This document shows positions 35,866 through 56,176 of a DNA stretch of 64,000 bases, piece by piece. Both the position numbers and the translations under genes were made by a program. The notes below the pieces were generated by a model, which was given only the letters and a program-made list of their open reading frames with translations, searched no databases and was not told the DNA's origin. Origin of the DNA: Acidobacteriota bacterium (GTDB lineage: Bacteria > Acidobacteriota > UBA6911 > JACQSX01); assembly GCA_036505615.1 (NCBI GenBank), contig DASXTB010000409.1:4540-68539 (forward strand), written 5' to 3'. The stretch's first letter is position 1, and every line of letters starts with the position of its first letter.

Positions 35866-35958
35866 AAGACCTCCGATCCGTATGGATCCCGCTGGGACTA
35901 ATTCCGCATTCCGCAATCCGCATTCCGCATTTGAGCGAATCCGCATTCCGCAATCGCA

Positions 35959-36399: not shown

Positions 36400-36404
36400 A
36401 CAGT

Positions 36405-36520: not shown

Positions 36521-36525
36521 CGATC

Positions 36526-39642: not shown

Positions 39643-39730
39643 ACATCTATTGGAACAGATTCATTAGTGCCCTGCACTCTCCAGGCTCTTGGCGGCTGAT
39701 CGCTCCGCTCTTGCCGCAGCTCCTGGGCGC

Positions 39731-40285
39731 TTAATACTCAATCACTTCTACCTTGTCTCGGAATTGTCGGAAGTCGATCTTGCGAACGCTGTAGTCGGAC
39801 AGCGTCTTTTTGGTGACGCGAAAGACCAGCACGGCCTCACGCTGGCTGGGAACGAGCGCAGTCCGGTCTTCAAGATGAGCTGAAACGGCGAAGCTTTCCT
39901 CGCTGCTCAACTGCGTCAGAGCGTTGCCAAATTCTCCCAGTAATTTCAAAATCATATCCCGCACCAGGCGCATTTTCTCGGCGCGGGTGCGCGTGCTGGG
40001 AGACAGCCGCTTTATGCCGAAGGGGGTGATTATTTCATCGCGGTTGATGTTGAGCAGGAAACTGAAATTTACGCCGTAGCCGGGGAGATAGGATCCTTTC
40101 GGCTCATTGACCAGCGCTAGCGGGTGGTTAAACTCACTTTTCAGAGCCGTCTGCAGAATGTTCTCGAACATCTGAATTTCATTCCGCATCTGGCGATAAT
40201 CGATCGAATTCCGGGCAAGCAGCGAAGCAGGAAGGCACAGTGCTAATCCAAAAAGGGCAGTGCATGTTAGAAATTTTCTTTGCAT
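39731..40285 (-). CDS. Hypothetical secreted protein
   Basis: Start at MQRKFLTCTALFGLALCLPASLLA (signal peptide). No recognisable domain. Confidence 0.4.
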   Translation of the reverse strand: MQRKFLTCTALFGLALCLPASLLARNSIDYRQMRNEIQMFENILQTALKSEFNHPLALVNEPKGSYLPGYGVNFSFLLNINRDEIITPFGIKRLSPSTRTRAEKMRLVRDMILKLLGEFGNALTQLSSEESFAVSAHLEDRTALVPSQREAVLVFRVTKKTLSDYSVRKIDFRQFRDKVEVIEY

Positions 40286-40363
40286 AGCTTCCTGACTATC
40301 CTGTCCGCTCTCATCATAAACGGCCCAAGCTTCCAAAAAAATTGAAGCTCGCAGGGCAATTAT

Positions 40364-41002
40364 CTACTGTGTAGTTCGCCGAAACTGCTCCCAGCGATCC
40401 TGGTTCTGTTTTTGAAGAGCCTGAAATCCGGTCTGCAGCTCGTTGTGCTCGTAGGTGTCTTTAACCTTGAGATCCTCCCACACCTGGTAGAGCGCGGTGC
40501 TGAACTGCTTATTCTGTCGCTGCTCGCTTGCCGCGATCATTCGATCTACCGCCTCCAAAAGCTCCTGCTGGCTCAGATTAGAATTGGAACCGGCAGTCGC
40601 ACCGCTCTTCCATAGGCGGGCTTGCACTGTAACACCGTGGTCGTTCCAAGTGACTGCGCTCTGCGTTACCGTCAGAGCGGCGATCAGAATCAGGGCAGCA
40701 ATGAGCGCCCCCCGAAATCCGGGCAAGACTGGTCGCAGCCAGCCGATCGAGGGGATCGAGCGCTGCAAGCGCAACGCCCAGCTTCGTTTTGCCTGTGCCT
40801 CCGGCCGAACGCGGAGAATCCAGGTGGGTTCTTCATCGGTCCACTCCTGCAGAAAGGCTCTCGACTCGAGCAGTTCTGTGTACTGTTCATGGCAGAACGG
40901 ACAATTGTCCACGTGGTCCAGCAGTTCCAGCTTTCGGCGCGGCCGGATTCCTTCTTCGTAAACCAGCTCCAGTAACTGTTCCTTACACTCTTGGCATTGC
41001 AT
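40364..41002 (-). CDS. Zinc-finger (zf-HC2-like) anti-sigma factor with TM and periplasmic domain
   Basis: N-terminus CQECKEQ...HVDNCPFCHEQ. TM segment (ALIAALILIAALTV). Lies directly downstream of the ECF sigma gene. Confidence 0.6.
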   Translation of the reverse strand: MQCQECKEQLLELVYEEGIRPRRKLELLDHVDNCPFCHEQYTELLESRAFLQEWTDEEPTWILRVRPEAQAKRSWALRLQRSIPSIGWLRPVLPGFRGALIAALILIAALTVTQSAVTWNDHGVTVQARLWKSGATAGSNSNLSQQELLEAVDRMIAASEQRQNKQFSTALYQVWEDLKVKDTYEHNELQTGFQALQKQNQDRWEQFRRTTQ

Positions 41003-41012
41003 GGACCAACTC

Positions 41013-41600
41013 CTATGTCTGAGTAAACTCTCTTTGGACCAAAAGGCGTCTCAGCGTCTTCAGGCCGAGATACATGCGCGACTTGACAGTGCTCAAGGGA
41101 ATGTCGAGGATCTCGGCGATTTGATGAAATTTGAGGTTTTCATATTCCTTCATGACGATCACCAAGCGCTGTTCTTCGGGGATCAACTGGATTACGTCGC
41201 GCAGACGATCTACGCTCTCTTTCCTGCGCAGGCTCTCTTCGGGATTGTCTTCCTCCTCGGTCATCACTCGACGAAGTTCGCTTTCCTGGGATTCGGAGGA
41301 GTGGTAAATCTCAAGCGGTATTTTTTGTTTCCCCTTGGCACGACGAAAAGTCATGCGGCATTCGTTTAGCGCGATCTTGTACAGCCACGACGAAAACCTG
41401 CCCGGGTCATCCAGTTCCCTGACCTTCACAAACGCCTTGGCAAAAGTATTTTGCGTTAAGTCCCTCGCTTCCTCGTAATCTCCTATGTTCCGGTAAATGA
41501 AGTTGAAGATCCGTTTTTGCCAGCGCTCGATGAGAATGTTGAACTGGCTCAGGTCCCCGTCTAAGTACTTGCGAACCAAGTACTCATCGCTGAACTCCAT
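41013..41600 (-). CDS. ECF (sigma-24 family) RNA polymerase sigma factor
   Basis: 195 aa. Region 2 (FNFIYRNIGDYEEARDLTQNTFAKAF) and region 4 (EQRLVIVMKEYENLKFHQIAEILDIPLSTVKSR). Confidence 0.85.
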   Translation of the reverse strand: MEFSDEYLVRKYLDGDLSQFNILIERWQKRIFNFIYRNIGDYEEARDLTQNTFAKAFVKVRELDDPGRFSSWLYKIALNECRMTFRRAKGKQKIPLEIYHSSESQESELRRVMTEEEDNPEESLRRKESVDRLRDVIQLIPEEQRLVIVMKEYENLKFHQIAEILDIPLSTVKSRMYLGLKTLRRLLVQREFTQT

Positions 41601-41821
41601 CCGGTCTCCCCAACAGACTTTACGATGCGATTTCGCAAAGAAAGTCTAAAGTTTCAATTGGTTACGCCTCTGTGGCGATTAATCCAAAGAGATCAATTAC
41701 TTACGCTATTATCGCAAAGAGTGGCCGGGATTGGAAGCTGCATCCGCCTCGGCGGGCCGGGCGGCAACCTAAAGCTCAGGGACACGGGAACAGGGAGACA
41801 CGGGGACCTCGGACGGCTGGC

Positions 41822-42012
41822 GCCTCCGCCGGGCTTGTCCCGGCGGAGCGCAAGATTCTCGCAACTTGCGGCGAACGGGAACATTACTACCCGCAAAAGG
41901 TAGTGAACAATCTTGGCTCCACCGGCACAAGGCCGGTGGAGGCCATGAGTGTTTGATCGATCCGGCTCTAGTAAAAAATCTTTGCTCCGCCGGGACAAGC
42001 CCGGCGGAGCCG
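41822..42012. repeat. Cluster of GC-rich hairpins with a conserved ACAAG/CTTGT pentaloop
   Basis: ccgccgggCTTGTcccggcgg (41826-41846), ccaccggcACAAGgccggtgg (~41918-41938) and ccgccgggACAAGcccggcgg (41988-42008). The first and third are exact reverse complements. Confidence 0.6.
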
Positions 42013-42119
42013 ATTTGGTTGCTTATGGATTTGGGCATCATGCGAATGGCCAGCCGGGATTCATCAGGGCTGACCAAAACTTCACCGATTTGTGAGATGA
42101 GGACGAGGCGTTTTGAGCT

Positions 42120-42752
42120 TCACTGGCCACTTTTCTTTTTGGGGGTTGTTTGGCGACTCCTTAGCTGCGGTTTTAGAAACTTTTCATAACACTCCGGACA
42201 GATGCCGTGGCTGAACTCTGCATCCGAGTGTTTTGTAATGTAGTTTTCCACCTGATCCCAGTAGTTTTCATCATTCCTTATTTTCTTGCAGTAGGAACAC
42301 ATGGGTAAAAGGCCGCGAAGCTGTTTTACGTGGGATAGAGCCGCTTCCAGTTCCGTCACGCGCTCGGCCAGCTTGTTCTGCAGATCAGTCACGCGCGCTC
42401 CTACTTGAAGACGCGCTTCCAGTTCCGCCGGGTCAAAGGGCTTAGTAATGTAGTCGTCTGCTCCCGCCTGAAGGCCTTCTACAACATGCTCCCGTCCTTT
42501 TACGGTGAGAAGAATAATGTAGATGACCTTCAGCCCGGTAGCGTTGCGGACTCTTCTGCAGACCTCGACACCATCCATTCCCGGCATCATCCAGTCCAGG
42601 ATGGCAAGCGATGGAGCATTTGTGTCTTGCAGCACCCGCCAGGCCTCCAAACCGTCGCCCGCAGTCACCACCTCATACCCTTTTGAGGCCAGCGTAGCTT
42701 CCAGGAGACGTCGCGATACGGGTTCATCGTCGGCTACTAAAACCTTCATCAC
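42120..42752 (-). CDS. Response regulator with a C-terminal CxxC...CxxC putative zinc-ribbon domain
   Basis: Receiver (VLVADDEP ... LDWMMPGMDG ... YITKPF). C-terminal PMCSYCKKIRNDENYWDQVENYITKHSDAEFSHGICPECYEK. Confidence 0.8.
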   Translation of the reverse strand: MMKVLVADDEPVSRRLLEATLASKGYEVVTAGDGLEAWRVLQDTNAPSLAILDWMMPGMDGVEVCRRVRNATGLKVIYIILLTVKGREHVVEGLQAGADDYITKPFDPAELEARLQVGARVTDLQNKLAERVTELEAALSHVKQLRGLLPMCSYCKKIRNDENYWDQVENYITKHSDAEFSHGICPECYEKFLKPQLRSRQTTPKKKSGQ

Positions 42753-43123
42753 TCCGCACTCCCGCCATCAGACGGCAGACCTGCCTTCGACCGGCGTCGC
42801 GAAGAGAGGCGTTGCCGGACGCGCTCAAATTCATTCTCGAGTTTGGACAGAAGGACCTCGCTCCCTTCCAACGAACCTGCGGAGCAAGCGCTTTCAAACA
42901 TGGTGCAAAGCTCGATAAGGCAGTCAGCTTCCACAAACGAATTTCCGCCGGCTACGCTGCTTGCGACCCGATCAAGTGTTGCGCTGGCGCCTCTCAGGTT
43001 GTGCGCAAGACGCCTGATCTCCTCGGCATCGCCTCCTTGTACGGCGGCTCGAAGTTCTAGAAGACGAGCGGGCGCCGTATCGAGGAAACAATCAATTAGC
43101 TCATCCAAAATTTCTTCCATTGA
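42749..43123 (-). CDS. Hpt (histidine phosphotransfer) domain protein
   Basis: Hpt signature RRLAHNLRGASATL. Start at MEEILDELIDCFLD. ATGA overlap with the downstream response-regulator gene. Confidence 0.6.
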   Translation of the reverse strand, partial: SMEEILDELIDCFLDTAPARLLELRAAVQGGDAEEIRRLAHNLRGASATLDRVASSVAGGNSFVEADCLIELCTMFESACSAGSLEGSEVLLSKLENEFERVRQRLSSRRRSKAGLPSDGGSAE

Positions 43124-43298
43124 GTCATCCGTCCGGATCCTGACCGCAATAATTGTCGCAAAATTTAGGGCGGCGCAGTTAGGTCTTTTATGAGGTAGGC
43201 GTACCAGTTGCAGCAACAAGAAGCCTAAGCCATTCGGAATACGCCTCTTTGGCCGGCACGGTGCGTGTTATGCTGTCTACAATCAAGGTTGCGCCATC

Positions 43299-43847
43299 AT
43301 GGCTAAGAAAATTGTCCCGTTTACCTACGACGATTACGCCTCGCTGCCCCAGGACCGATTCATCCACCAGATCATCGACGGCGAGCATTTCATGAACCCT
43401 TCCCCGATTCCCTACCACCAGGATATCTCCCGCAACCTTCAGAGAATTCTTGTGGAGTTTGTGGAAAGGAACGATCTGGGTAAGATCTATGACGCGCCTA
43501 TAGATGTGGTGTTATCAGACACCAACGTCGTGGTTCCAGATCTGATTTTCATTTCCCGGGCGCGCACTTCGATCATCCTGGAAAAATATATCGCGGGCCC
43601 GCCCGACCTGGTAGTTGAGATTCTTTCGCCTGGTACACGCAAGCTCGACTTGGATTTGAAACTGAAACTGTACGCGCGCTTTCGGGTTCCGGAGTACTGG
43701 ATAATCGATCCTAAACAGAAAACGGTCCGACTCTATCGTCTCGGCAAAGCAGCTCAGGAAGAGAAGTTGTTCCATGAAGACGAAGTACTGACCAGCCCCA
43801 GCTTGCCGGGCCTGCGCATCCCCCTGGCCGAAGTGTTCAGAAGCTGA
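43299..43847 (+). CDS. Uma2-family (DUF820) putative restriction-type endonuclease
   Basis: 182 aa. IDGEH...NPSP...HQ, PDLVVEILSPGTRKLDLDLKLKLYARFRVPEYWIIDP. Confidence 0.8.
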   Translation: MAKKIVPFTYDDYASLPQDRFIHQIIDGEHFMNPSPIPYHQDISRNLQRILVEFVERNDLGKIYDAPIDVVLSDTNVVVPDLIFISRARTSIILEKYIAGPPDLVVEILSPGTRKLDLDLKLKLYARFRVPEYWIIDPKQKTVRLYRLGKAAQEEKLFHEDEVLTSPSLPGLRIPLAEVFRS

Positions 43848-43864
43848 TCCAGATTATTTTCAAA

Positions 43865-44899
43865 TCAGGAGACAGTGCCCACCTCAATGCGGTTTCTTCC
43901 TCCCTCCTTTGCTCGATACAGCGCCATGTCTGCAGTGTGGATGAGTTTGTCGGCCTCAGTTTCAACGGCAATCGACGTCAATCCCAGGCTGATGGTGGCC
44001 GAGATTCTCCGGTCCGACGTTTCGATCTGGTCGCCGGCCACCCGCGTTCGGGCGCGCTCGGCAATGTTCAGGCCCGTCTCCGGATTGCAGTTGCCAAGCA
44101 CCAACAGGAATTCCTCGCCGCCGTAGCGGCCAATGGCGTCGTAAGGACGGACGCTGGAGCGCATCCGCTTGACAACCTCGACGAGAACGGCGTCGCCCGC
44201 CATGTGGCCATAGGTGTCGTTAATCTTCTTGAAGTGATCTACATCGGCCATGATCACGCTTACCGGTCCTTCGTTCCGCTGCACGCGGGCCAGTTCGCGA
44301 TGAAGCACGTCCATTATCGCGGACCGGTTCCAGAGGCGGGTCAGCGAATCGATCATCGCCTTGCGCCGAAGATCATCGCATTCGGAAATCAAAGCGATTT
44401 GCGCCTTGCTGAGCGCCGTCACCTTCAGCTCATTCTCAGCCCATGCGGCCAGGTCGCGCAGCTTCTCCAGGTCGGCGCCGCTCATCTGTCTCGGTCTCCG
44501 GTCCATGATACAAAACGTTCCCAGCTTGCTGCTGTCGGCTGCTCTCAGCGGGTGACCCGCGTAAAACCGCACGTACGGCTCTCCAGTTACCAGCGGGCTG
44601 TCGTTAAAGCGAGGGTCCAGCAGAGTATCGGGCACCAGCATGGTGTCATCCATCAGAATGGCATGTGCGCAAAACGAGATGGTTCGTGCCGTCTCAGAGA
44701 CCGGCATTCCCTGCGACGATTTGAACCACTGGCATTGCGCATCAACCAGGGAGATAAGGGCTATGGGAACATCCAGTAACTGGCGGGCGAGCCTTGTGAT
44801 CCGATCGAAGCGTTCCTCGGCAGGTGTGTAGAGAACCCACAGTCCCTGAAGTGCGCTGAGGCGCGTGGGCTCGTCGGGCGGCAATGGTGCTGGAATCAT
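43865..44899 (-). CDS. GAF-domain diguanylate cyclase (GGDEF)
   Basis: 344 aa. N-terminal GAF. RYGGEEFLLVL (GGEEF). C-terminal LYRAKEGGRNR. Confidence 0.85.
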   Translation of the reverse strand: MIPAPLPPDEPTRLSALQGLWVLYTPAEERFDRITRLARQLLDVPIALISLVDAQCQWFKSSQGMPVSETARTISFCAHAILMDDTMLVPDTLLDPRFNDSPLVTGEPYVRFYAGHPLRAADSSKLGTFCIMDRRPRQMSGADLEKLRDLAAWAENELKVTALSKAQIALISECDDLRRKAMIDSLTRLWNRSAIMDVLHRELARVQRNEGPVSVIMADVDHFKKINDTYGHMAGDAVLVEVVKRMRSSVRPYDAIGRYGGEEFLLVLGNCNPETGLNIAERARTRVAGDQIETSDRRISATISLGLTSIAVETEADKLIHTADMALYRAKEGGRNRIEVGTVS

Positions 44900-45047
44900 T
44901 TATGACACTCCTGATAGTTCCTTTCTACAAATGGGACGCATGCCGTGCGCCCCTACCAATATAGAAGGCAGAATTTTCATCGATCATACGACGACAATTC
45001 GCCCATAGTCATTTGAAATTCGCCATTGGAAACCCGGAATTGGCGAC

Positions 45048-45947
45048 TCATCTGGCCTTGGGGTGCGCCTTGCGGTAGACGGTCTGAAGCTGCTCGATGG
45101 AAACATGCGTGTACTTCTGCGTGGTGGACAAACTGGCATGGCCAAGCAGTTCCTGAATCATGCGCAAATCGGCGCCCGCGTTCAGGAGATGGGTGGCTGC
45201 CGAGTGGCGCAGCGTATGCGGCGAGATTTTTAACTTCAGCGCCGCCTCTCTGACGTATTTCTTTATCAGGCGCCCCACCGAGCGGGAGGTCAAGCGTGTT
45301 CCGTTCTTGTTTACAAACAGCGCTTCCGGCTGCAGACGGCCTCGGGCGATCTGTTCCCGTACCTGGAGATAGTCTCGAATCCTAGCCTCAGCTTTGGTGC
45401 CGAATGGAATGATTCGCTCTTTGCGTCCCTTTCCCAGAACGCGCACAAAGCGCTGGCTGAGATCAACGTCATCCCGGTCCAGAGCCGTCAGCTCTGATAC
45501 TCGCATTCCTGTAGCGTAGAGCAGCTCGAGAATGGCGCGATCTCTCACTGCCAGTGGAGAATCTCCTCGAGGAGCCGTCACCAGGCCGGCCGCTTCGTCG
45601 ACGTGGAGAACACGGGGAATCCGCTTCTCTTTGCGGGGCGTGGCGACGAGTTTGGCCGGATTCGACTCAATAAAGCGTTCCCGGTGCAAGAACTTGAAGA
45701 ACGAGCGAAGCGTCGCAATCTTCCGTCCCGCGGTTGACGGTTTGCGTTCCCTGGAATGAAGCGATGACAGAAAATCCCGAATCGCAATATGGTCCACTCT
45801 TGACGGCTCGATCTCCTTCACGCTCCATTGGGCGCAAAGGAAATCGTGAAATTGCGCCAGATCGCTTCTGTAGGCGCGCAGCGTCTGCGGCGAATACCCT
45901 TTCTCGCTCTCCAGGTATTTCAAGAACAGGCGGGTTAGGGCTTTCAT
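45048..45947 (-). CDS. Tyrosine site-specific recombinase XerC/XerD
   Basis: 299 aa. R...HTLRHSAATHLLNAGADLRMIQELLGHASLSTTQKYTHV (catalytic Tyr). Confidence 0.85.
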   Translation of the reverse strand: MKALTRLFLKYLESEKGYSPQTLRAYRSDLAQFHDFLCAQWSVKEIEPSRVDHIAIRDFLSSLHSRERKPSTAGRKIATLRSFFKFLHRERFIESNPAKLVATPRKEKRIPRVLHVDEAAGLVTAPRGDSPLAVRDRAILELLYATGMRVSELTALDRDDVDLSQRFVRVLGKGRKERIIPFGTKAEARIRDYLQVREQIARGRLQPEALFVNKNGTRLTSRSVGRLIKKYVREAALKLKISPHTLRHSAATHLLNAGADLRMIQELLGHASLSTTQKYTHVSIEQLQTVYRKAHPKAR

Positions 45948-45960
45948 CTTAAGTTAGGTC

Positions 45961-46150
45961 GCAAGTCGCAGGTCGCAGGTCGAATCCTCAAGTCGCAGGT
46001 CGCAGGTCGCACGTCGAAATCCTCAAGTCGCAGGTCGCAAGTCGCAGGTCGCAGGTCGAAAGCGAAAACCCAGACTTTTAAAGTTCCTCTTAAAAATGAA
46101 AAAGGGGTCATGGACTCGGAACCTGCGACGTGCGACCTGCGACTTGTAAC
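45961..46150. repeat. GTCGCAG heptamer arrays in inverted orientation
   Basis: (gtcgcaggtcgcaag)n at 45961-46060; cctgcgacgtgcgacctgcgac at 46120-46145. Overlaps the last ~13 codons of trmFO. Confidence 0.65.
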
Positions 46151-47547
46151 CTTTGTTTACAGAATTCTTCCATCGCCTGGCGCGCCAGCGCAATTTGACC
46201 AGCCCGGCGCACTTCTTTTTTCCCCCGCATTTCGACAGGCGGCAGCAACCCAAAGTTTATGTTCATCGGCTGAAAGCTCGCCGAATCTGCCTGGGTGATG
46301 TAATGCAGAAGGCTCCCAATTGCGGTCTCTCGAGGAAACTCGAGCGGGTTGCCTCCTGAAGCCACTCGCATGGCATTCCATCCGGCAACCAGTCCGGTGG
46401 CCATTGATTCGACATACCCCTCCACTCCGCAGATCTGGCCCGCGAAATAGATCTCCGGCCGAAACTTCAACTGAAGCGCCCGGTTTAGCAGCCGGGGAGC
46501 GTTAATAAACGTGTTTCGATGAATCTGGCCCAGCCGGATAAATTCGGCGCGCTCCAGGCCCGGGATCAGCCGGAAGACTCGCTGCTGTTCCCCGTAGCGA
46601 AGGTGATTTTGAAAACCTACCATGTTATACGCGTCGGCCACCAGGTTTTCCTGGCGCAGTTGTACCACTGCATATGGCTGCAGGCCAGTTCGAGGGTCGC
46701 GCAGGCCAACAGGCTTCATAGGGCCAAATCGGAGTGTGTCAAGCCCGCGGCGGGCCAGCTCCTCGATTGGAAGACAGGCCTCAAAGAACATCGCCTTTTC
46801 GAATTCCTTAACAGCGACCGACTCCGCATGCAGAAGAGCGTCGTAGAAGCGCTCGTACTGATCGCGTGCCATCGGGCAATTCACATAATCGCCGTCAGCG
46901 TGCTGTTGGACTTCCGCTTGTTTACAGGCAGCGTGCTGCGTTTCAGTGGAATGACCGGTTTCCTGTGGAGACTCAGCCCGCCGCTTCTCTTCCAAAATTC
47001 GATGATCGTATCGCGAGCGCCGAAAAACCTTGTCCCAATCAATCGAGTCGGATTCCACGATGGGACTGATGGCATCGTAAAAATAGAGCGCCGCTTCACC
47101 GGTCATCTCCTTAATGAAGCGCGAAAGTCCCGGTGAGGTGAGCGGCCCGGTGGCGATGATGGCAATTTGGCCCGCGGGAATCTCGACCACTTCGGACCTT
47201 TCTACGCGGATTGAGGGATGGTTTTGCAGGGTCTGTGAAATCGTCTGGCTGAACTTTTCCCGATCCACGGCAAGAGCCGCTCCGGCCGGAACTTTGACCC
47301 GGTCGGCAATGGAGATTAGCAGAGAGCCGCACCGCCGCAGTTCCCATTTCAGCTGGTGTGGCGCGCTCCCCTCGAGGTCGGACTTGAACGAATTGCTGCA
47401 CACCAGCTCGCCCAGCCAGTCGGTTTGATGAGCCGCGGTCTTGACCGCAGGCCGCATTTCAAACAGGCAAACCTTGCCGCCCTGCTGCGCAATCTGCCAC
47501 GCAGCCTCTGACCCTGCCAGTCCACCACCGATGACCCAGATCTCCAT
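46108..47547 (-). CDS. trmFO: Methylenetetrahydrofolate--tRNA-(uracil54-C5)-methyltransferase TrmFO (Gid)
   Basis: Start at MEIWVIGGGLAGSEAAW (FAD GxGxxG). FAGQICGVEGYVESMATGLVAG. C-terminal ~13 aa are repeat-encoded. Confidence 0.85.
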   Translation of the reverse strand: MEIWVIGGGLAGSEAAWQIAQQGGKVCLFEMRPAVKTAAHQTDWLGELVCSNSFKSDLEGSAPHQLKWELRRCGSLLISIADRVKVPAGAALAVDREKFSQTISQTLQNHPSIRVERSEVVEIPAGQIAIIATGPLTSPGLSRFIKEMTGEAALYFYDAISPIVESDSIDWDKVFRRSRYDHRILEEKRRAESPQETGHSTETQHAACKQAEVQQHADGDYVNCPMARDQYERFYDALLHAESVAVKEFEKAMFFEACLPIEELARRGLDTLRFGPMKPVGLRDPRTGLQPYAVVQLRQENLVADAYNMVGFQNHLRYGEQQRVFRLIPGLERAEFIRLGQIHRNTFINAPRLLNRALQLKFRPEIYFAGQICGVEGYVESMATGLVAGWNAMRVASGGNPLEFPRETAIGSLLHYITQADSASFQPMNINFGLLPPVEMRGKKEVRRAGQIALARQAMEEFCKQRLQVAGRTSQVPSP

Positions 47548-47552
47548 GGTAT

Positions 47553-47700
47553 TAAATGGGACACGGATGAACACGGAATACACGGATGAAGCCCCCGTCG
47601 CGGCCGGTCAAGAGACCGGTTCAGTATGTGGTTGGTCGGCCGCGACGGGGGCTTCATCCGTGTATTCCGTGTTCATCCGTGTCCTGATAAAACGGCAAGA
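47553..47700. repeat. Giant perfect palindrome (48-bp stem, 30-nt loop), CACGGAT family
   Basis: ggacacggatgaacacggaatacacggatgaagcccccgtcgcggccg ... cggccgcgacgggggcttcatccgtgtattccgtgttcatccgtgtcc. Confidence 0.75.
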
Positions 47701-49053
47701 TCAAAAATCCAAATCATACATCTTCAACTTCTTATATAAATTGCTGCGCTCCACCTTGATCGCTTCCGCGGTCTTACTGACGTTTCCCTGATGCTCGATC
47801 AGCTTCCTCAGAATGAATTCCTTTTCGAATTGCTCTCTTGCTTCATGCAGCGAGGCGTTGTCGTAAGGGCTGGACGCCAGCGCCGTGGATTCCAGAATAT
47901 TGGTGGGCAGCGCGTAAACATCGATTCGCGGGCCAGGAACCATGATGACCAGCCGCTCAATTACGTTTTTCAACTCGCGGATGTTCCCCGGCCAGGAATA
48001 GCTCTGGAATTTTTCCATCACATCCGGCGTGATTTCTTTAGGCGTCTTTCCATAGCTAACAGAGAATCGCGCCACAAAATAATCCACCAGAGCGGGGATG
48101 TCTTCCTTGCGCTCGCGCAACGGAGGCACCTGGAAAGGAATAACATTCAATCGGTAATAAAGATCTTCGCGGAAATTTCCCCGCTCAATTTCCGCCTCCA
48201 GATTCTTGTTAGTAGCCGCGACAACTCTTACGTCGATTTCCACTTCATCGTTGCTTCCCACCATGTGAAAGCGCTGTTCTTCGAGCACTCGTAGTACCTT
48301 CGATTGCGTGCGGGGGCTCATGTCTCCCACCTCGTCCAGAAAAAGAGTTCCTCCGTCGGCGAGCTGAAGCTTCCCCTTCTTGCTCTCGGTAGCGCCGGTG
48401 TAGGCTCCTTTCACGTGGCCGAAAAGCTCGCTTTCGATTAAATCCTCAGGAATGGCGGCGCAGTTGACCTCCACATAAGGGTGGCTCCAGCGCAGGCTCT
48501 GCCGGTGAATATGTTTGGCGACCAGCTCTTTTCCGGTGCCATTTTCACCGTAAATGAGAATGCGACCGTTGGTGGGAGCGGCGTAGGCAATCTGCTGGCG
48601 CAGCGCTTTCATCGGAACGGAATTGCCGATCATCACGGCTTCGGCGAAAAGCTGATTGCGGAGGGTCTCGTTTTCCTCTTCAAGTTTTTTCTGTTTGAGC
48701 GCGTTATTGACCACCAACAGTGTCTTATCGATCGAGAGAGGCTTCTCAATGAAATCGAACGCGCCCAGTTTGGTAGCCCGTACCGCCGTCTCAATGGTGC
48801 CGTGCCCCGAGATGATCACTACGGCGCAATTTTTCTTGAAACTTTGTATTGCTTCCAGTGTCTGCAGGCCGTCTATTTGCGGGAGCCACACGTCCAGCAG
48901 TATGAGATCGAAGTCTTTCTCCGCCAGGCGATCCAGGCACTCCTCGCCGCTGCCGACCGTCTCCACGCGAAACCCTTCATCTTCCAGAATGGCGCGCAGT
49001 GACGTTTGGACGCCCATCTCGTCATCCACTACCAGAATTCTTCCTTTGGACAT
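47701..49053 (-). CDS. Sigma-54-dependent response regulator (NtrC family)
   Basis: 450 aa. Receiver (ILVVDDE..D), AAA+ sigma-54 activator (GENGTGKELVAKHIH, ESELFGH), C-terminal Fis-type HTH. Confidence 0.9.
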   Translation of the reverse strand: MSKGRILVVDDEMGVQTSLRAILEDEGFRVETVGSGEECLDRLAEKDFDLILLDVWLPQIDGLQTLEAIQSFKKNCAVVIISGHGTIETAVRATKLGAFDFIEKPLSIDKTLLVVNNALKQKKLEEENETLRNQLFAEAVMIGNSVPMKALRQQIAYAAPTNGRILIYGENGTGKELVAKHIHRQSLRWSHPYVEVNCAAIPEDLIESELFGHVKGAYTGATESKKGKLQLADGGTLFLDEVGDMSPRTQSKVLRVLEEQRFHMVGSNDEVEIDVRVVAATNKNLEAEIERGNFREDLYYRLNVIPFQVPPLRERKEDIPALVDYFVARFSVSYGKTPKEITPDVMEKFQSYSWPGNIRELKNVIERLVIMVPGPRIDVYALPTNILESTALASSPYDNASLHEAREQFEKEFILRKLIEHQGNVSKTAEAIKVERSNLYKKLKMYDLDF

Positions 49054-49175
49054 GGTCCTACCAATGACTAACAGGACACTGAAAAACTCACCGCGAAGGC
49101 GCGAAGAACGCGAACGCTGGGTGTTGACGCGGAACCCCTAGTTGTTGGCGTATCCATCGCACAGTCATCCAATAA

Positions 49176-51410
49176 TTAAACGGAAATCTTTGCCTCACTG
49201 CGATTCTGTGCCGCCGAGACTGGGAGCTCGATCACAAAACGCGAGCCCCTCGGCAGATTCGCCTCCGCCCGAATATTGCCATGATGTTCGGAAACTATCT
49301 GCCGCACAATGGCCAGCCCCAGGCCGGTGCCCTGCTTCTTGGTAGAGAAGTAGGGGAGAAAAAGTTTTTCATAATCCTCCGCGGCAATTCCGGGACCATT
49401 GTCGGTCACCTCGATGCGCACCAATTCGCGGTCCTTTTGCATGCGGGTCCGGATCTCAATTCGCTTTTCGAACCCCGAGCCGTGCATCGCTTCCACAGCG
49501 TTGTCGATAAGATTCACAAAAACCCGTTTCATCTGCTCGGGATCGGCCGCCGTCTCGGGCATCACTTTGTCATAGTCTTTGTTGATTTGAAGATCGCCGA
49601 AGCGGCCATCATACAAGTCCAGCGTTTCGTCGATAATCTGATGGATGTTCAGCAGCACGGGCTTGCTTAGCGGCAACCTGGCAAAGCGCGAGAACTCATC
49701 GACCATTTCCTTCAGTACCTGGCTTTCGTGCTGAATAGTGCGGGTGGAATCTTCCAGAATTCCGGCAAATTCTGCGCCCGCCCGTTCCCTGGATGGGCCT
49801 TCCTGCTCGCGCATTTTCCTGAACTTCTTGAGCAGGCGCTCGGCGGTGAGCTGAATAGGCGTGAGCGGATTCTTAATTTCGTGAGCCAGTCGCCGCGCTA
49901 CTTCCTGCCAGGCTGCAAACTTCTCGGCTCGAATGAATTCCGTCAGGTCATCCAGCACCAGCAAGTAACTCATCTTGCCGGAGGCGGGATCCAAGTGCGA
50001 AGTAGCGGTAACGGCTACGTGGACTGGAGAAAGGTGATGGGAAAAAATCAATTCCCTCCGATGGGCCCCGAAAAGCCGGGCGCGGCGGAGCAGAGCTTCT
50101 ACCGGGCGGTTCTCGTCGCCGGGAATAAGATCGGCCAGGCGTTTTCCCAGTAATTGGCGCTCGTCGCGGTTAAAAATTTTACCGGCCGCGACGTTGGCGG
50201 TCTGGATGGTGAATTCTTCGTCCAGAGACAGGACGGCAGTGCCGATGTTTTGCAGGATCGTCTCGATGATATTTCTGCGCCGCTCTAATTCAGCATTGGC
50301 GACCCGCAAAGATTCGCTGGAGCGTTCGATCTCTTTCCTATTGGACTCAAGCTGGGAGGTCATCTCATTGAAGGAATTCACCAGCTCTTCGAGTTCATCG
50401 GTGGCCGGGCAATGGATCCGGTAACCCAGATCGCCGGCGGCCACTCTGCGCGAACCTTCCGCCAACGCCTCGATTGGGACGGTGATTTTCTTTGCCGTGT
50501 AAAGTCCAAACCAGGTAAAACCGAACATGACAGTCAGGGTGGTCAGGCCAAGCAAGATGAAGTAGTTCTGCTTCAAGGCTCGAAGCTTGCCGCCAGTCTC
50601 CTGCGAAATGGTTTGCGCCACGGTCTCGGCTTTCCGAATCTCAGCGGCGTGGTAGGCCACAGAAATAGGAATGGTGGAGAGGGCGGCGGCGACGCCGTTG
50701 CGGATGGGCAAGACAGTGATTAAATCTTCACGAGTGGATTTTTCCGGCTCGCCAAAATGCGCGCTCATAGGCTGGGCGCTCAGCAGCGACCGGTGCCAAG
50801 AACTGCGGTTCGTTACGCCCCCAAGCGAACCGGCCGAGAATGTTTGATCGCCTTGCCTCCAGTAAACGTAGTCGAAATTGCCCGCCGCAAGCGTTTCGCG
50901 CAGCACTCGCATGGGGTGATCGGTCTCCTTCTCCATCCGGTCTCGCAGCCGTTCCAGCAGAAGCATGTCAGTTGAGCCGATCGCCCGGTAGTAGCTCTCG
51001 GCTATTGCCTCGGAATGTGAGAGCACTTGCTTGGCCGGAGCGTTAAACCACTGAGTAAGGGTGGTGTTGATCAAGGCAAAGGCGATCAAAAGCAGCGACA
51101 GTGATGGAAGCAGGGAAAGCACGATCAGCACGGTGACCAGTTTTACCTTGATCTTCGACCCAATACGTTCGTGCCGATATTCGAAGAAGAGCTTGATCAG
51201 ATTTCGAAGCAGAAAAAAACTGAGAGCGAGAACCACCAGGAAATTGATGGCAAAGACGGCGGCCCAGAGATTCAGATTTTCAAGAAACCGGGCATTGCCT
51301 ACGGACGAAGGATTCAAAAAGAACTGGCTGATGAGAAACAACAGCAGGAAAAACACTAGAGCCCCACCCAGCCAATAGATCTGCCTTTGGATCGACTTTT
51401 TTTCGCTCAT
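49176..51410 (-). CDS. Sensor histidine kinase (TM, HAMP, PAS, HisKA, HATPase_c), partner of the NtrC-like regulator
   Basis: Start taken at MSEKKSIQRQIYWLG (the ORF extends to 51548). H-box LAHEIKNPLTPI. G-boxes DNGPGI...GTGLGLAIV. Confidence 0.8.
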   Translation of the reverse strand: MSEKKSIQRQIYWLGGALVFFLLLFLISQFFLNPSSVGNARFLENLNLWAAVFAINFLVVLALSFFLLRNLIKLFFEYRHERIGSKIKVKLVTVLIVLSLLPSLSLLLIAFALINTTLTQWFNAPAKQVLSHSEAIAESYYRAIGSTDMLLLERLRDRMEKETDHPMRVLRETLAAGNFDYVYWRQGDQTFSAGSLGGVTNRSSWHRSLLSAQPMSAHFGEPEKSTREDLITVLPIRNGVAAALSTIPISVAYHAAEIRKAETVAQTISQETGGKLRALKQNYFILLGLTTLTVMFGFTWFGLYTAKKITVPIEALAEGSRRVAAGDLGYRIHCPATDELEELVNSFNEMTSQLESNRKEIERSSESLRVANAELERRRNIIETILQNIGTAVLSLDEEFTIQTANVAAGKIFNRDERQLLGKRLADLIPGDENRPVEALLRRARLFGAHRRELIFSHHLSPVHVAVTATSHLDPASGKMSYLLVLDDLTEFIRAEKFAAWQEVARRLAHEIKNPLTPIQLTAERLLKKFRKMREQEGPSRERAGAEFAGILEDSTRTIQHESQVLKEMVDEFSRFARLPLSKPVLLNIHQIIDETLDLYDGRFGDLQINKDYDKVMPETAADPEQMKRVFVNLIDNAVEAMHGSGFEKRIEIRTRMQKDRELVRIEVTDNGPGIAAEDYEKLFLPYFSTKKQGTGLGLAIVRQIVSEHHGNIRAEANLPRGSRFVIELPVSAAQNRSEAKISV

Positions 51411-51574
51411 CTGAGCCGCCGGATCTATTTTAGCCCGACATCGCCTACGAGGCTCGGTGTTTCGGCGTCTGGAGCAAAAACGTTCAACCGCGAAGGGCGG
51501 TGAATGTTTTTGAAAATCCGGGCAAGGCGCCGGTTTTGAGCTAGGCAACGGAATTGCGCTAGAATGCCCACGAC

Positions 51575-52039
51575 ATGTCGCCGACTGGCAAGAGACAACG
51601 CCAGACCCTGATTCGCAGGATTATCGCTGAAGAGGAAATCTTCAGCCAGGAAGAATTGCGAAATGAACTGCTGAAGCGCTCGGTGAATGTTACGCAGGCC
51701 ACTCTTTCCCGCGACATCGCCGAGCTGGGCCTGGTAAAACAGTCCTCCACGGGAACCTACACGCTTCCTGAAAACGTGACTGAACATACAGAGGCTCACG
51801 CCATTTTGGCCCGCATGCGCCAACTGGTTCAGGAGATCGATTTCTCAGGCAACCTGGTGCTGGTCAAGACCGCGCCAGGCGACGCGCAAGCAGCGGGACT
51901 TGCCATGGACCACCTTCAATTCAAGGAAGTGGTGGGAACCATCGCCGGCGACGATACCCTGCTCGTGGTGATACGGGCAAAATACAAAGCATCGGGCTTT
52001 GCCAGAAAACTGGAGAAAATGCTGGCAGGAGAAGGCTAG
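51575..52039 (+). CDS. argR: Arginine repressor ArgR
   Basis: 154 aa. N-terminal winged helix (FSQEELRNELLKRSVNVTQATLSRDIAELGLVK). C-terminal GTIAGDDTLLVV. No SD; a TAGAAT -10-like hexamer lies 9 nt upstream, so the transcript may be leaderless. Confidence 0.85.
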   Translation: MSPTGKRQRQTLIRRIIAEEEIFSQEELRNELLKRSVNVTQATLSRDIAELGLVKQSSTGTYTLPENVTEHTEAHAILARMRQLVQEIDFSGNLVLVKTAPGDAQAAGLAMDHLQFKEVVGTIAGDDTLLVVIRAKYKASGFARKLEKMLAGEG

Positions 52040-52450
52040 GAGGCAGGAAGCAGGAGGCAGGAAGCAAACGGCAGGAAGCAGGAAGCAGGAAGCAGGAGGC
52101 AGGAGCCAGGAGGCAGGAGGCAGGAGGCAGACGGCAGAAGGCGGAGGCAGAAAGCGGAAGGCCGAAGGCGGAAAGCGGAAGGCAGTAGACAGAAAGCGGA
52201 AGGCGGAAAGTGGAATGCAGCAGGCGATGGCTTACAAGGCGTCATCTGTCATTCGTCATTTGTTACCCACAACGACAGACGACGATTTGATACGTGAACT
52301 GTCTTCTGCCTTCCGCTTTCTGCCTGCTGCTTTCTGCCTGCTGCTTTCTGCCTTCTGCTTTCTGCCTCCTGCTTTCTGCCTTCCGCCTTCCGCTTTCTGC
52401 CTACAGCCTTCCGCTTTCTGCCTACAGCCTTCCGCTTTCCGCCTTCCGCC
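52031..52450. repeat. GCAGGAA heptamer array (52031-52230) and inverted TTCCTGC array (52300-52450) between argR and argF
   Basis: ggaggcaggaagcaggaggcaggaagc... versus ...ctgccttccgctttctgcctgctgctttctgcc. Confidence 0.75.
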
Positions 52451-53416
52451 TTAAACGAACTCCCGGTGCAGCGCTTTCAGCAGCAGGGCCTTGTGCACGT
52501 GCAGGCGGTTTTCGGCCTGGTCGTAGACGATGGAGCGCGGTCCATCGATAACTGAATCAGAGACTTCTTCACCCCGGTGCGCGGGAAGGCAGTGCATGAA
52601 GAACGCCTTCTTGCCGGCGCGGGTCATCAGTTGTGGAGTCACCTTGTATTGTGCAAAGTCCCGCAACTTCCTTTCTGCATCCCTCTCCTGGCCCATACTG
52701 ACCCAGGTGTCTGTGTAAACGGCATCCGCTCCAAAAAGATGGCCCAGATCGTGGCTGAATTCCACGATGCTGCCGCTCTCCCCGGCAAATTGTGCCGCGC
52801 GCCGGCAGCAGAGTGCGTCCGCCTCATAACCGGGAGGCGAGATCAGAGTGAAGTGCATTCCCAGCAGAGCGCAAATCTGCATCAGCGAGTTACTGACGTT
52901 GTTGGGGTCTCCCACGTAAACCAGCTTGCGATGCTTCACCTCACCCCAGCGCTGCTGCAACGTCAGGACGTCGGCCAGCACCTGGCAGGGATGTTCAAAA
53001 TCGCTGAGCGCATTAATCACCGGGATGGATGAATTTCGAGCCAATTCCTCCAGCGTCGATTGGGAGAATGTTCGAGCAATCACAATGGAGCACCAGCGCT
53101 CCAGATTCCTTCCTGTGTCCTTGATCGATTCCCGTTCACCAATCTTCTGCTGCTGGCAATCCAGAAAACTGGCCGTACCTCCCATGCTGTGCATTCCAAT
53201 TTCAAAAGTGAGACGGGTGCGGAGAGAAGGCTTTTCAAACAGCAACACGGCGTGACAGCCGGAGAGCGAATTCTGATGCGTCTCGGGCGCATTCTTCACC
53301 AGACACGCCAGTTGCAGCAGGTCGTGGATGCGTTCCACGCTGAGATCGGAGATCGCAAGCAGATGTTTCGGCCAGTCCCCCGCTGGATTCGTCTTAGGCT
53401 TCTTCAAGTTCTTCAT
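52451..53416 (-). CDS. argF: Ornithine carbamoyltransferase
   Basis: FEKPSLRTRLTFE (STRTR-type carbamoyl-phosphate site), HCLPAHRGEE. Start taken at MKNLKK (the ORF extends to 53524). Confidence 0.85.
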   Translation of the reverse strand: MKNLKKPKTNPAGDWPKHLLAISDLSVERIHDLLQLACLVKNAPETHQNSLSGCHAVLLFEKPSLRTRLTFEIGMHSMGGTASFLDCQQQKIGERESIKDTGRNLERWCSIVIARTFSQSTLEELARNSSIPVINALSDFEHPCQVLADVLTLQQRWGEVKHRKLVYVGDPNNVSNSLMQICALLGMHFTLISPPGYEADALCCRRAAQFAGESGSIVEFSHDLGHLFGADAVYTDTWVSMGQERDAERKLRDFAQYKVTPQLMTRAGKKAFFMHCLPAHRGEEVSDSVIDGPRSIVYDQAENRLHVHKALLLKALHREFV

Positions 53417-54826: not shown

Positions 54827-56176
54827 TCAAGCCCGCTTCCCCAAAGGTTGAGATTGATGCTTTTCGTCTTCCTGCCGACTGCCTTCTGCCTCCTGCCTTC
54901 CGCCTTCTGCTTTCTGCCTTCTGCCTTCCGCTTTTTGCCCTCCGCCGTCTGCTTCCTGCCTGCTGAGCGGAGAGGGTCGCAGCAGCGCGTTCACACGCAG
55001 GCGCGTCGCCTGCAGGCGGATGAATCCTTCGGCGTCCTTCTGCCGGTAAACGTCGTCCTTTTCAAATGTCGCCAACTCCTCTGAGTAGAGAGACCGGGCC
55101 GCACGCCGTCCCAGCACGCTGCAGTTTCCCTTGTACAAACGCAGCTTGACTTCACCGGTCACGTTCTCCTGGCTTTCACGGACAGTTTTCTGCAGCAGCC
55201 GCATTTCCGGCGAAAACCAGAAGCCGTAATAGGTCCACTCAGCAAACTTCAGGCTCAACTCTTCTTTCCAGTGCTGGACTTCGCGATCCAGTGTGATCGA
55301 TTCCAGAGCCCGGTGCGCGTGCCACAGCAAAGTGGCGCCCGGCGTTTCGTACACTCCGCGAGATTTCATCCCTACGAAGCGATTTTCCACCAGATCGACG
55401 CGGCCCACGCCATGAACTCCACCCAGCTTATTGGCCTCCTCCAGAAGTTCCACCGGGCCAAGCGGCCGGCCATTGATGGCGACAGGAATTCCTTTTTCAA
55501 AGCTGAAAACAACCGTCTCTGGACGCTCCGGGGCAGTGACCGGGTTGGCCGTCAGGATGTATATATCCTCCGGAGCCTCGGCCCAAGGATCCTCAAGGAT
55601 TCCTCCCTCGTGGCTGCAGTGCATCAGATTACGGTCGGTGCTGTAGGGCTTTTCCAGAGTGGCCGTCACCGGCAGCGAATGCTTCCTGCAATACGCGATC
55701 AGATCGGAGCGGGACTGCATCTCCCAGTCGCGCCAGGGAGCGATTACCTGAATATCAGGAGAAAGTGCGTAGAAGGTGAGTTCAAAGCGAACCTGATCGT
55801 TGCCCTTGCCGGTGGCGCCGTGCGCGACGCAGAAAGCCCCCTCCTTTCGCGCTACTTCCAACTGATGCTTGGCGATGACGGGGCGAGCCAGCGAGGTGCC
55901 CAGAAGATAATAACCCTCGTAAAGGGCGTTTGCCTGAATTGCCGGGAACACGTAGTCACGGACGAATTCTTCGCGCAGGTCCAGAATGAGGCTCTTGGAA
56001 GCGCCCAAGGATTTGGCCTTCTCTTGCAACCCGTCCAGCTCTTCGGCCTGGCCTACGTCGGCGGTAAAGGTGACGACCTCGTATCCTTTTTGATGCTTCA
56101 GCCAATGAAGCATCACTGTCGTGTCCAGCCCGCCGGAGTAAGCCAGCACGACCCGCTTTAAATTCTTCTCCTGCAT
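54827..56176 (-). CDS. argG: Argininosuccinate synthase with a repeat-encoded low-complexity C-terminal tail
   Basis: 449 aa. [10 protein letters not shown] (PP-loop). The last ~45 aa ([37 protein letters not shown]) are translated from the GCAGGAA-family array at 54845-54965. Confidence 0.9.

Follow-up and report, generated by a model that had tools for sequence, protein, structure and literature searches.

Short repeats that pair into intergenic hairpins have been described in Xanthomonas and in cyanobacteria. In Xanthomonas, arrays of the heptamer GGGAATC are paired in inverted orientation at 70-75 sites per genome (Rehm et al. 2015, PMC4692102), and the arrays are transcribed (PMC4692102). 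The cyanobacterial STRR (short tandemly repeated repetitive) elements are described in PMC2670836 (citing Jackman & Mulligan 1995) as repeats of 7 bp that give rise to hairpins between genes, as in the hupS-hupL and nif intergenic regions, and their proposed roles are transcript stability or translational coupling (PMC2670836). Direct repeats of the heptamer TAACTGA are found in Beggiatoaceae, cyanobacteria and Bacteroidetes, with one inverted case among 170 sets (PMC4679880), and REP sequences form a conserved high-copy family of 20-40 nt that carries GTAG/CGTC heads and owes its mobility to RAYT transposases (PMC3733652, PMC3333891). Our search of the literature on heptamer, tandem or inverted repeats in Acidobacteria found no description of the class reported below, and a large survey of perfect inverted repeats does not mention Acidobacteria. 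Here we analysed a stretch of 64,000 nt from an Acidobacteriota genome (contig DASXTB010000409.1, positions 4,540 to 68,539; hereafter the window), in which a 48-bp perfect palindrome lies at 47.5 kb between an ntrC-like gene and trmFO.

Our results place this palindrome in a lineage-wide, fast-evolving class of mirrored short-repeat hairpins, a variant of a known and poorly understood kind. The palindrome is real, and we consider it fairly probable that it belongs, as a single-copy element, to a class of long interrupted palindromes specific to this lineage, which sit in about half of the intergenic spacers and are made by slippage and inverted templating. A preliminary description of this DNA had singled out the focal palindrome and two further sites, at 24.5 kb and 9.5 kb, and had overlooked that all three belong to a class found throughout the window.

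The focal palindrome and the window-wide class

Genes were identified from open reading frames (ORFs), from Pfam matches and from the gene calls on L007, a JGI metagenome contig that covers the same locus. The focal hairpin and its neighbours are arranged as follows.

47701-49053, minus strand: ntrC-like sigma-54 activator gene, upstream of the hairpin, with Response_reg, Sigma54_activat and HTH_8 domains (Pfam; identical gene in L007)
47637-47684, no strand assigned: right arm, exact reverse complement of the left arm
47607-47636, no strand assigned: spacer of 30 nt, non-palindromic, the loop in the fold
47559-47606, no strand assigned: left arm, whose outer 33 nt are three imperfect units of about 10 nt, ACACGGATGA, ACACGGAATA and CACGGATGAAG
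46108-47547, minus strand: trmFO (GIDA family), downstream of the hairpin

The exactness of the 48-nt arms and their 30-nt spacing, both reported before, were confirmed, and the entire structure measures 126 nt. When two mismatches are permitted, the arms lengthen to 53 nt at 96%. The tandem repeat in the arm has a period of about 10 and 3.1 copies, and the inner 15 nt of the left arm (CCCCCGTCGCGGCCG) are GC-rich, unique and non-repetitive. A search of the window found the 48-mer once and its reverse complement likewise once. On the minus strand the hairpin starts 16 nt past the stop codon of the ntrC-like gene and ends 11 nt ahead of the trmFO ATG. It folds into a 48-bp stem without interruption (RNA -113.5 kcal/mol, DNA -72.1 kcal/mol), with an RNA z-score of -15.7 and none of 200 shuffles as stable.

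The second site is also a palindrome with perfect arms, and the third is a layered quasi-palindrome.

24564-24706, no strand assigned: second palindrome, 44-nt perfect arms at 24564-24607 and 24663-24706, 55-nt spacer
9457-9750, no strand assigned: third element, a layered quasi-palindrome of about 290 nt that fills a divergent spacer

The second palindrome had been placed at 24535-24700, slightly offset, and its description as perfect stands. Its arms reach 50 nt at 96% with mismatches permitted and hold three units of about 9 nt of the CACGGGGNA type (2.9 copies); its RNA fold (-116.8 kcal/mol, z = -15.0) was again matched by none of 200 shuffles. It lies between htrA (22718-24352, plus strand) and an aldehyde dehydrogenase gene (24782-26284, plus strand), 205 nt past the htrA stop and 69 nt ahead of the latter gene. 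The third site, given as a perfect palindrome at 9537-9662, is not one: its best arms, 9547-9577 and 9616-9646, are 31 nt long at 94%, with no perfect run beyond 12 nt. These inner arms consist of ACACGGATTT decamers and a GC-rich core, and the outer arms (9457-9485 and 9722-9750) of AACTTGA/TCAAGTT heptamers. The whole of 9457-9750 folds as a single hairpin (RNA -127.8 kcal/mol, z = -7.9).

In the local hairpin alignment the focal element scored 96 and the 24.5-kb element 90; three dinucleotide shuffles of the complete window reached at most 28-31. With scores and folds so far beyond those of shuffled sequence, chance is excluded as the origin of these two elements. Their arms are single copy, with no second match in about 190 kb made up of the window and related loci (about 125 kb of these related). 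The three sites had been said to share CACGG-rich sequence. The claim holds for the focal and 9.5-kb elements, where the decamer pattern ACACGGATNNNCACGGA is common to positions 47561 and 9539 (3 matches against 0.35 expected), and fails for the 24.5-kb element, whose CACGGGG/CACTGGG nonamers have only CACGG in common with the other two. CACGGA is not enriched in the window (31 observed, 35 expected). We rejected the 9.5-kb and 47.5-kb elements as a repeat family, since their alignment beyond the shared decamer scores just the same as the best of 200 shuffles.

To define the class, an inverted-repeat scan, a tandem-repeat scan and a purpose-made hairpin-alignment scan with a cut-off score of 36 were employed. 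The window holds 18 loci with scores of 36 to 177, against a shuffle maximum of 31. All 18 fall within the intergenic DNA, which makes up about 14% of the window. Of the 33 spacers that measure 60 nt or more, 18 hold one of them. The typical member consists of a tandem array of short units, a spacer of 12-240 nt and a reverse-complement array, with arm complementarity usually of 80-96%; the two perfect palindromes are the extremes of this class. Under one criterion throughout, 38 arrays in the window have a period of 7, six a period of 6 and one a period of 8, and none a period of 9 or 10. Across the window and four related genomes, a reverse-complement partner lies within 450 nt of 68 of the 85 heptamer arrays (about 80%). 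Folding z-scores ranged from -7.9 to -15.7 among the elements folded. The unit sequences differ among loci and comprise about 8-10 recurring families (CGGAWTG, GTCCGTK, GGCAGRA, CATCRGT, GTCGMAR, GCCAGTT, AACYTGA and others), mostly without G-runs, and super-periods of 21 nt, about two turns of B-DNA, are frequent in the arrays. Further members in the window, none with an assigned strand, are listed here.

6088-6244: hairpin in a convergent spacer, mirrored 8/16-mer CGAGCGGG / CCACTCAC
11346-11502: hairpin in a convergent spacer, stop to stop, mirrored ATTGCGG/AATCCGC with inner GTCCGTG units
13724-14057: largest member, 141-nt arms at 85%, GCCAGTT-type heptamers, between a divergent ParB-like gene and uvrD
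16469-16659: mirrored GAAAGTC/GACTTTC heptamers, from uvrD to an amino-acid permease gene in tandem orientation
18571-18902: mirrored CATCGGT/GACCGAT heptamers, filling a convergent spacer
26393-26512: mirrored hexamers CACGTT/AACGTG, in the convergent spacer between the aldehyde dehydrogenase gene and gspD
34491-34779 and 35233-35388: pseudopilin hairpins, mirrored CGGAATG/CGGATTG, between gspG2, gspH and a gspI-like gene in a type II secretion operon
37753-37917: mirrored CGGATTG/CAATCCG heptamers, 55-nt arms at 93%, filling the gspE/gspF junction of the same operon
45958-46152: mirrored GTCGCAR/ACCTGCG heptamers between trmFO and xerC, the right arm extending into the trmFO 3' end
52030-52452: mirrored GGCAGRA/CTGCCTT, about 25 and 22 units, filling the convergent argR/argF spacer stop to stop

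Several members show a layered, onion-like build, in which outer arms of one unit family surround either inner arms built from a different family or an entire nested hairpin (L004, a related genome described below, at 9606-10000; window 9457-9750; window 52040-52450). This architecture suggests stepwise growth. The inverted repeat at 20088-20376 (70-nt arms at 91%, 148-nt spacer) is built not from tandem units but from a chain of small hairpins such as AAAACCCGAAGGGTTT; kinship with positions 11531-11779 of another relative, L003, was rejected, for both carry CCCGAAGGG hairpins and mirrored small-hairpin chains and yet show no significant similarity. Within a putatively coding ORF of 1737 aa with NHL repeats (56255-61468, minus strand), an 8/16-nt tandem array at 58797-58906 (GGGAGAGTGGGGGAGT x 6.7) has a unit resembling that of the intergenic array at 6087-6135 (GAGCGGGCGAGTGGGT).

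The arrays lie tightly against the genes, starting 0-10 nt past stop codons and ending 6-16 nt ahead of the next ATG; the distance from hairpin to next start is 1-11 nt. Shine-Dalgarno motifs are rare (11 of 39 starts). Hairpins were found in five of six convergent spacers, several of them from stop to stop, and in 7 of 12 divergent spacers (window 2/6, L003 3/4, L004 2/2), compared with 16 of 27 tandem and convergent spacers in the window. Within the type II secretion operon gspE-F-G-G'-H-I, no fewer than three junctions carry hairpins (gspE|F, gspG'|H and gspH|I), gspG|G' holds an unpaired array, and gspF|G a pair of arrays that is weaker and below the threshold.

The arrays also run into coding sequence. 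They reach into the 3' ends of real ORFs and give them variable, heptad-like C-terminal tails (window 46108-46146 and 54868-54965, L003 11439-11468, L001 7322-7356). The last 13 or so codons of trmFO come from the next heptamer array, and the TrmFO tails read ...QVAGRTSQVPSP in the window, ...SKVAGRKSQVAG in L003 and ...SHKSQVASRRS in L004; the last 45 or so codons of argG derive from (AAGGCAG)n. Annotated protein lengths may be inflated by such tails. At window 33999-35946 (minus strand), the longest-ORF starts of gspG2, gspH and the gspI-like gene fall in upstream heptamer arrays, which results in artificial, repeat-encoded N-termini before the real GF(T/S)L(I/L)E prepilin motif. Spurious ORFs made of array alone occur as well, for example 51999-52454 (plus strand).

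Relatives and independent assemblies

The closest relatives in the genome collection are Acidobacteriota metagenome-assembled genomes. TrmFO identity to the window and the state of the ntrC-like|trmFO junction are given below.

Window, TrmFO 100%: 153 nt, decamer and GC-core hairpin with perfect 48-nt arms
L003, TrmFO 83%: 190 nt, GTCCGTK heptamer hairpin whose 3' arm stops 1 nt before the ATG
L004, TrmFO 75-77%: 395 nt, GTCCGTK heptamers as outer arms and a nested hairpin with 86-nt arms
L009, TrmFO 71%: stop/start overlap (TAATG)
L008, TrmFO 67%: 41-nt spacer, no such hairpins in 19 kb

L001 (TrmFO 61-65%, depending on the method) has another gene upstream, and the spacer there lacks a hairpin with a score of 36 or more; mirrored heptamer hairpins stand at two of its other spacers. 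The tree is ((window,L003),L004),L009,L008,L001, and the NtrC-like proteins of the inner clade (window, L003, L004) are 91-96% identical. As the two genes overlap or lie 41 nt apart in relatives, their junction is read as an operon junction. The hairpin would most simply have been gained at this putative operon junction and then retained as a hairpin, present in the window, L003 and L004.

The sequence of the hairpin was not retained. That of the window is unrelated to the other two, so that the orthologous hairpin differs completely even from that of a relative with 96% identity in the NtrC-like protein. Descent of the CACGGA-type arms of the window from the GTCCGTK heptamers of L003 and L004 was rejected: the motif stands on the 5' arm in the window and on the 3' arm in the relatives. 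Inversion of a palindrome cannot swap the arm of a motif, and we therefore treat the window hairpin as a sequence replacement. Hairpin position is conserved with variation in length and sequence at three junctions of the window, L003 and L004, namely ntrC-like|trmFO, trmFO|xerC and argF|argR. The unit families GTCGCAR at trmFO|xerC and GGCAGRA with inner GTCATTC at argF|argR are kept in all three genomes, and their copy numbers have changed. As a test of concerted evolution, arm 7-mer spectra were compared at argF|argR and gave overlapping ranges within genomes (0.32-0.49) and between genomes (0.09-0.55).

Compact junctions, with practically no heptamer arrays or long hairpins, were observed in L008 (19.3 kb, GC 63%) and L002 (13.4 kb, GC 66%). 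The trait is confined to a sub-clade of about 55% GC that comprises the window, L003, L004, L009 and L001. In L001 a (GGGGATT)4 array lies at 7322-7356; the heptamer GGGGATT forms G-quadruplexes and is reported to be strongly enriched in Nostoc (PMC4692102).

The preliminary description had named proof of an assembly artefact, such as a chimeric inverted join, as the result that would overturn it. Some grounds for suspicion exist. The source is a metagenome-assembled genome, and the JGI contig L005 starts just past the centre of a long hairpin (its position 1 corresponds to L004 9855), which points to assembler difficulty at such sites; assemblies of these genomes tend to break at palindromes. 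The independent contig L007 encodes a TrmFO 100% identical to that of the window. It matches window 36108-52393 at 99.9% identity, with nine single-nucleotide polymorphisms (SNPs) and one 7-nt indel, all of which fall outside the focal palindrome, where there are zero differences. In addition, unique spacers part the arms, the 126-nt structure would be shorter than a typical short read, hairpins of a sister genome are identical in NCBI, JGI and Logan assemblies, and the same architecture is present in at least five genomes from these three sources. We regard the chance that the palindrome is an artefact as very small.

The sole indel between the window and L007 is one whole heptamer (CTGCCTC) in the argR|argF array (window about 52131, L007 264-270), and one SNP, at window 37770, turns a G·A mismatch in a stem of the window into a T:A pair in L007. 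Metagenome scans with a 26-nt piece of the focal arm and with the TrmFO protein gave no match, and hence no further population variants of the focal locus.

Origin, possible function and competing explanations

We propose that the elements are mirrored microsatellites that would arise in situ, with DNA-level processes making and keeping their self-complementarity. Replication slippage would grow and shrink the arrays by whole units; that slippage changes the unit number is shown by the one-heptamer polymorphism between the window and L007. Intrastrand template switching, fold-back copying or quasi-palindrome correction would copy one arm onto the other and so regenerate near-perfect arms; we infer this step from the near-perfect arms themselves, the symmetric mismatch spectrum, the layered arm pairs and the rapid replacement of sequence at a fixed position. 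The focal and 24.5-kb elements would be young or freshly corrected members, and recent generation or correction would account for their perfect arms. Recent generation had already been suggested for the palindromes, and it agrees with perfect arms being the extremes of a class of 80-96% complementarity and with a replaced sequence beside a 96% identical NtrC-like protein. The data are consistent with arms that were recently generated or re-homogenised.

The mismatch spectrum was taken from 22 hairpins between co-oriented genes, where the sense strand is known, with 73 informative mismatches. Structured RNAs under purifying selection usually show a clear excess of G·U pairs. Our analysis revealed 35 transition-type mismatches of the G·U type and 38 of the A·C type on the sense strand (binomial p 0.82), and a 2:1 preference for G·U was rejected (p = 7e-4). 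The lack of a G·U excess in arms that are 80-100% complementary suggests that complementarity stems from recent generation or correction at the DNA level, not from selection on single RNA pairs.

Several observations weigh against our interpretation. Only 73 mismatches were available, and a single mismatch in a stem of this length may have practically no effect on fitness, even where the RNA hairpin serves a function. Template switching or fold-back copying is deduced from the pattern, and no intermediate was observed. The focal element is itself atypical of the class, with a unit of about 10 nt in three copies only and a non-repetitive, GC-rich inner stem. GGCAGRA with inner GTCATTC is kept at argF|argR in three genomes, and heptamer families recur at non-orthologous loci and across genomes, which could mean a sequence-specific constraint such as a binding protein instead of neutral dynamics.

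That last point leads to the reading that the arrays are binding platforms for a sequence-specific DNA- or RNA-binding protein, the palindromic layout providing symmetric binding. Candidates would be a nucleoid-associated protein, a heptamer-binding protein of the cold-shock type or, at the focal site, the adjacent sigma-54 activator. The limited set of families (CGGAWTG, GTCCGTK, GGCAGRA, CATCRGT, GTCGMAR and others) recurs at non-orthologous loci in genomes with TrmFO identities of 61-83%, period 7 is strongly dominant, 21-nt super-periods match about two B-DNA turns, and CspB is reported, in a work cited by PMC4679880, to bind heptamer repeats with one protein per unit. Even so, unit sequences vary widely among loci, the orthologous junctions of close relatives carry unrelated sequence, and the focal and 24.5-kb elements are non-heptameric and single copy; perfect arms of 48 bp far exceed known activator sites, and no candidate protein was identified. 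We consider a binding platform improbable. An inserted non-autonomous mobile element, either a miniature inverted-repeat transposable element (MITE) or one of the REP/REPIN kind, would explain the gain of DNA at a junction that is compact in the outgroups, the decamer motif common to 9539 and 47561, and a palindromic build as in REPINs and MITEs. It accords poorly with the lack of a second arm copy in about 190 kb of window and related genomes, with the weak alignment of the 9.5-kb and 47.5-kb elements outside the decamers (no better than the best of 200 shuffles), and with each locus having its own unit sequence. There is no target-site duplication or conserved terminus (the flanks TTATCAG|...|CCATTTA show no direct repeat), and the window ORFs scanned include no transposase or RAYT gene. 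A mobile origin is very improbable.

A further question is whether the hairpins end transcripts, as the preliminary description implied by placing the palindromes where terminators are expected. That placement is weakly supported: the focal element starts 16 nt past the ntrC-like stop codon but ends 11 nt ahead of the trmFO ATG, at a putative operon junction; the 24.5-kb element starts 205 nt past the htrA stop, the 9.5-kb element is between divergent genes, and U-tracts are missing. No T-tract was found on either side of the three elements: the focal stem is followed by CATTTAATACCATG on the sense (minus) strand and by TGATAAAACGG on the plus strand, and the 24.5-kb element by CTTGAGACAGCC. 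None of the three was called by a consensus terminator scan, and canonical sites of a hairpin with a T-tract were not enriched in that scan (21 against 22.8 expected, 23 against 23.3 expected). A stem of 48 bp with a 30-nt loop also falls outside the 5-14 bp stem and 3-8 nt loop of intrinsic terminators, and members of the class do not keep to the ends of transcription units, being found inside the gsp operon, in divergent spacers and at the focal operon junction. An efficient role as intrinsic terminator is unlikely. The sole strong classical terminator-like site in the region lies elsewhere, between ECF sigma and response-regulator genes, where two copies of a 26-nt GC-rich self-complementary hairpin (GCTCCGCCGGGACAAGCCCGGCGGAGC; 41824-41849 and 41984-42009, 134 nt apart) have a T-rich tail on the minus strand.

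A broader version would have the hairpins act as factor-independent, often bidirectional terminators, or as RNA hairpins that define or stabilise 3' ends, under selection for RNA structure in a lineage whose terminators have no U-tracts. The start of arrays directly past stop codons, the occupied convergent spacers and the extreme stability of the RNA stems would suit this explanation, and, with canonical sites not enriched, the lineage needs a different signal for its 3' ends. In Actinobacteria, 3' ends with long stems that lack a U-rich tail have been reported (PMC13613805), and the Xanthomonas and cyanobacterial arrays likewise lie close to stop codons (PMC4692102, PMC2670836). Against it stand the missing G·U excess on the sense strand (35 against 38), the equal occupancy of divergent spacers (7/12), the hairpins at at least three junctions of the type II secretion operon, the overlapping or 41-nt ntrC-like|trmFO junction of relatives, hairpins that end 1-11 nt ahead of the next start codon, and loops of 12-240 nt with arms of up to 141 nt, which go far beyond what termination needs. 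We judge this explanation rather unlikely.

Under the mirrored-microsatellite interpretation any function would be secondary and REP-like, as a barrier to 3' exonucleases, a substrate of RNase III or a leaky attenuator; a leaky attenuator or a REP-like role in stabilising or processing mRNA would be the most plausible of these. Located between co-oriented genes, the focal element would be transcribed in the ntrC-like-trmFO mRNA and fold there into an extremely stable hairpin. From its geometry and the overlap of the genes in the outgroup, the hairpin base would set the upstream stop beside the downstream start and loop the insert out, and this adjacency of stop and start probably explains why such inserts are tolerated even in operons. 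CRISPR, riboswitch, tRNA and small RNA readings were rejected, as there are no tRNAs, no Rfam family and no unique-spacer periodicity. Rfam gave no match at gathering thresholds; at E <= 0.5 only sub-threshold eukaryotic miRNA-precursor models appeared, on both strands of long hairpins, and these were rejected as generic matches to long hairpins.

The wild-type, SbcCD-proficient E. coli chromosome carries hundreds of REP/BIME palindromes. It had been argued that perfect palindromes of this length are normally unstable because SbcCD cleaves hairpins, and that their presence implies either recent generation or a genome lacking or tolerating such surveillance. This premise is overstated. The longer and more alike the arms of a palindrome, the greater the risk that it poses, and the longer its spacer, the smaller that risk (PMC7999016). 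SbcCD cleavage in E. coli was shown on an interrupted palindrome of 246 bp and a perfect one of 460 bp (PMC3315005, PMC4245961), both far larger than 48-bp arms with a 30-nt spacer. Given the small arms, the spacer and the tolerance of REP/BIME elements, the palindromes do not imply missing SbcCD surveillance. No sbcCD match was found among the genes of the 64-kb window. The perfect palindrome is neither evidence of missing surveillance nor a conventional terminator.

A more far-reaching interpretation is that an uncultured Acidobacteriota clade carries self-renewing mirrored-microsatellite hairpins, which would be born in situ even between translationally coupled genes, have their arms held near-perfect by an active DNA-level process of homogenisation, such as template switching or hairpin-directed correction, and be tolerated or exploited because the RNA hairpin loops the insert out and leaves the upstream stop next to the downstream start. 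On this view a dedicated protein might recognise the limited set of heptamers, or RNase III might process the hairpins. We hold this to be unlikely as a whole; if true, it would be a general and previously undescribed route by which operon junctions grow structured spacers. If the pattern of the window is genome-wide, long and fast-evolving hairpins fill roughly every second intergenic spacer of this lineage, operon junctions and divergent promoter regions included. This affects the prediction of genes and operons, through spurious ORFs in the arrays and array-encoded C-terminal tails on real ORFs, the prediction of terminators in phyla without U-tract terminators, and the assembly of such genomes, whose contigs break at hairpin centres. 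The class also offers a clean natural system in which microsatellite slippage and palindrome-templated mutation jointly build structured non-coding DNA.

Comparison with known systems

Intrinsic terminators and the present hairpins have in common a stable stem-loop soon after a stop codon and, in convergent spacers, a dyad symmetry that could work in both directions. In contrast to terminators, the hairpins have no U-tract, their loops measure 12-240 nt instead of 3-8 and their stems 30-141 bp instead of 5-14, and they occur within operons and in divergent spacers. The REP, BIME and REPIN elements of Enterobacteria and Pseudomonas are likewise intergenic and palindromic, often at 3' ends and between operon genes; at the RNA level their hairpins can attenuate transcription or make the mRNA upstream more stable, and they are tolerated in SbcCD-proficient cells. 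Unlike REPs, each locus here has its own sequence, with arms of 30-141 nt made of tandem units. The focal arm ends have no GTAG/CGTC head and there is no RAYT-like gene among the ORFs scanned in the 64 kb. Nor are the elements high-copy, the focal and 24.5-kb arms being uncopied in the window, which is 64 kb of this genome, and in about 125 kb of related loci. The terminal inverted repeats, target-site duplication and dispersed copies that together define a MITE were not found in combination.

The class is closer to the arrays of heptamers. TAACTGA repeats resemble it in being lineage-restricted intergenic arrays that often end a few nucleotides before a start codon (modal 1 nt), and differ in being direct arrays of one unit, whereas here the arrays are mirrored and the units many. 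The STRR elements share 7-bp units and hairpin-forming intergenic regions in operons, and PMC2670836 calls them "highly variable but structured" among close relatives. Their unit families differ from ours, though L001 has its GGGGATT array, and few of the GGGGAYT arrays of Nostoc and Anabaena are paired (PMC4692102). The Xanthomonas arrays agree with the present ones in their tandem heptamers, in being overwhelmingly intergenic and abutting or overlapping the upstream stop codon, in plus/minus-strand pairs able to form stem-loops, and in positions that are kept between species while length and sequence vary. They differ in having one G-rich unit family, read as G-quadruplex forming, in place of at least 8-10 unrelated families of which most have no G-runs; in being paired at only a subset of sites, compared with about 80% of the arrays here; and in being under-represented between divergent genes, where we found no depletion. 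They also belong to another phylum, and the focal element here has units of about 10 nt and a unique GC core.

Collectively, the class shows what defines mirrored arrays: a short tandem unit (in part only for the focal element, with about 10 nt, and the 24.5-kb element, with about 9 nt), pairing with a nearby reverse-complement array, an intergenic position near a stop codon, and conservation of that position with variation in length and sequence. The single dominant G-rich, G-quadruplex unit by which the Xanthomonas and Nostoc arrays are defined is replaced by many families. The paired GGGAATC arrays of Xanthomonas and the cyanobacterial STRR hairpins are the closest analogues, and our data extend the heptamer-array phenomenon of these two groups to a third phylum, in a form that is more extreme, drawn from many unit families and almost always mirrored.

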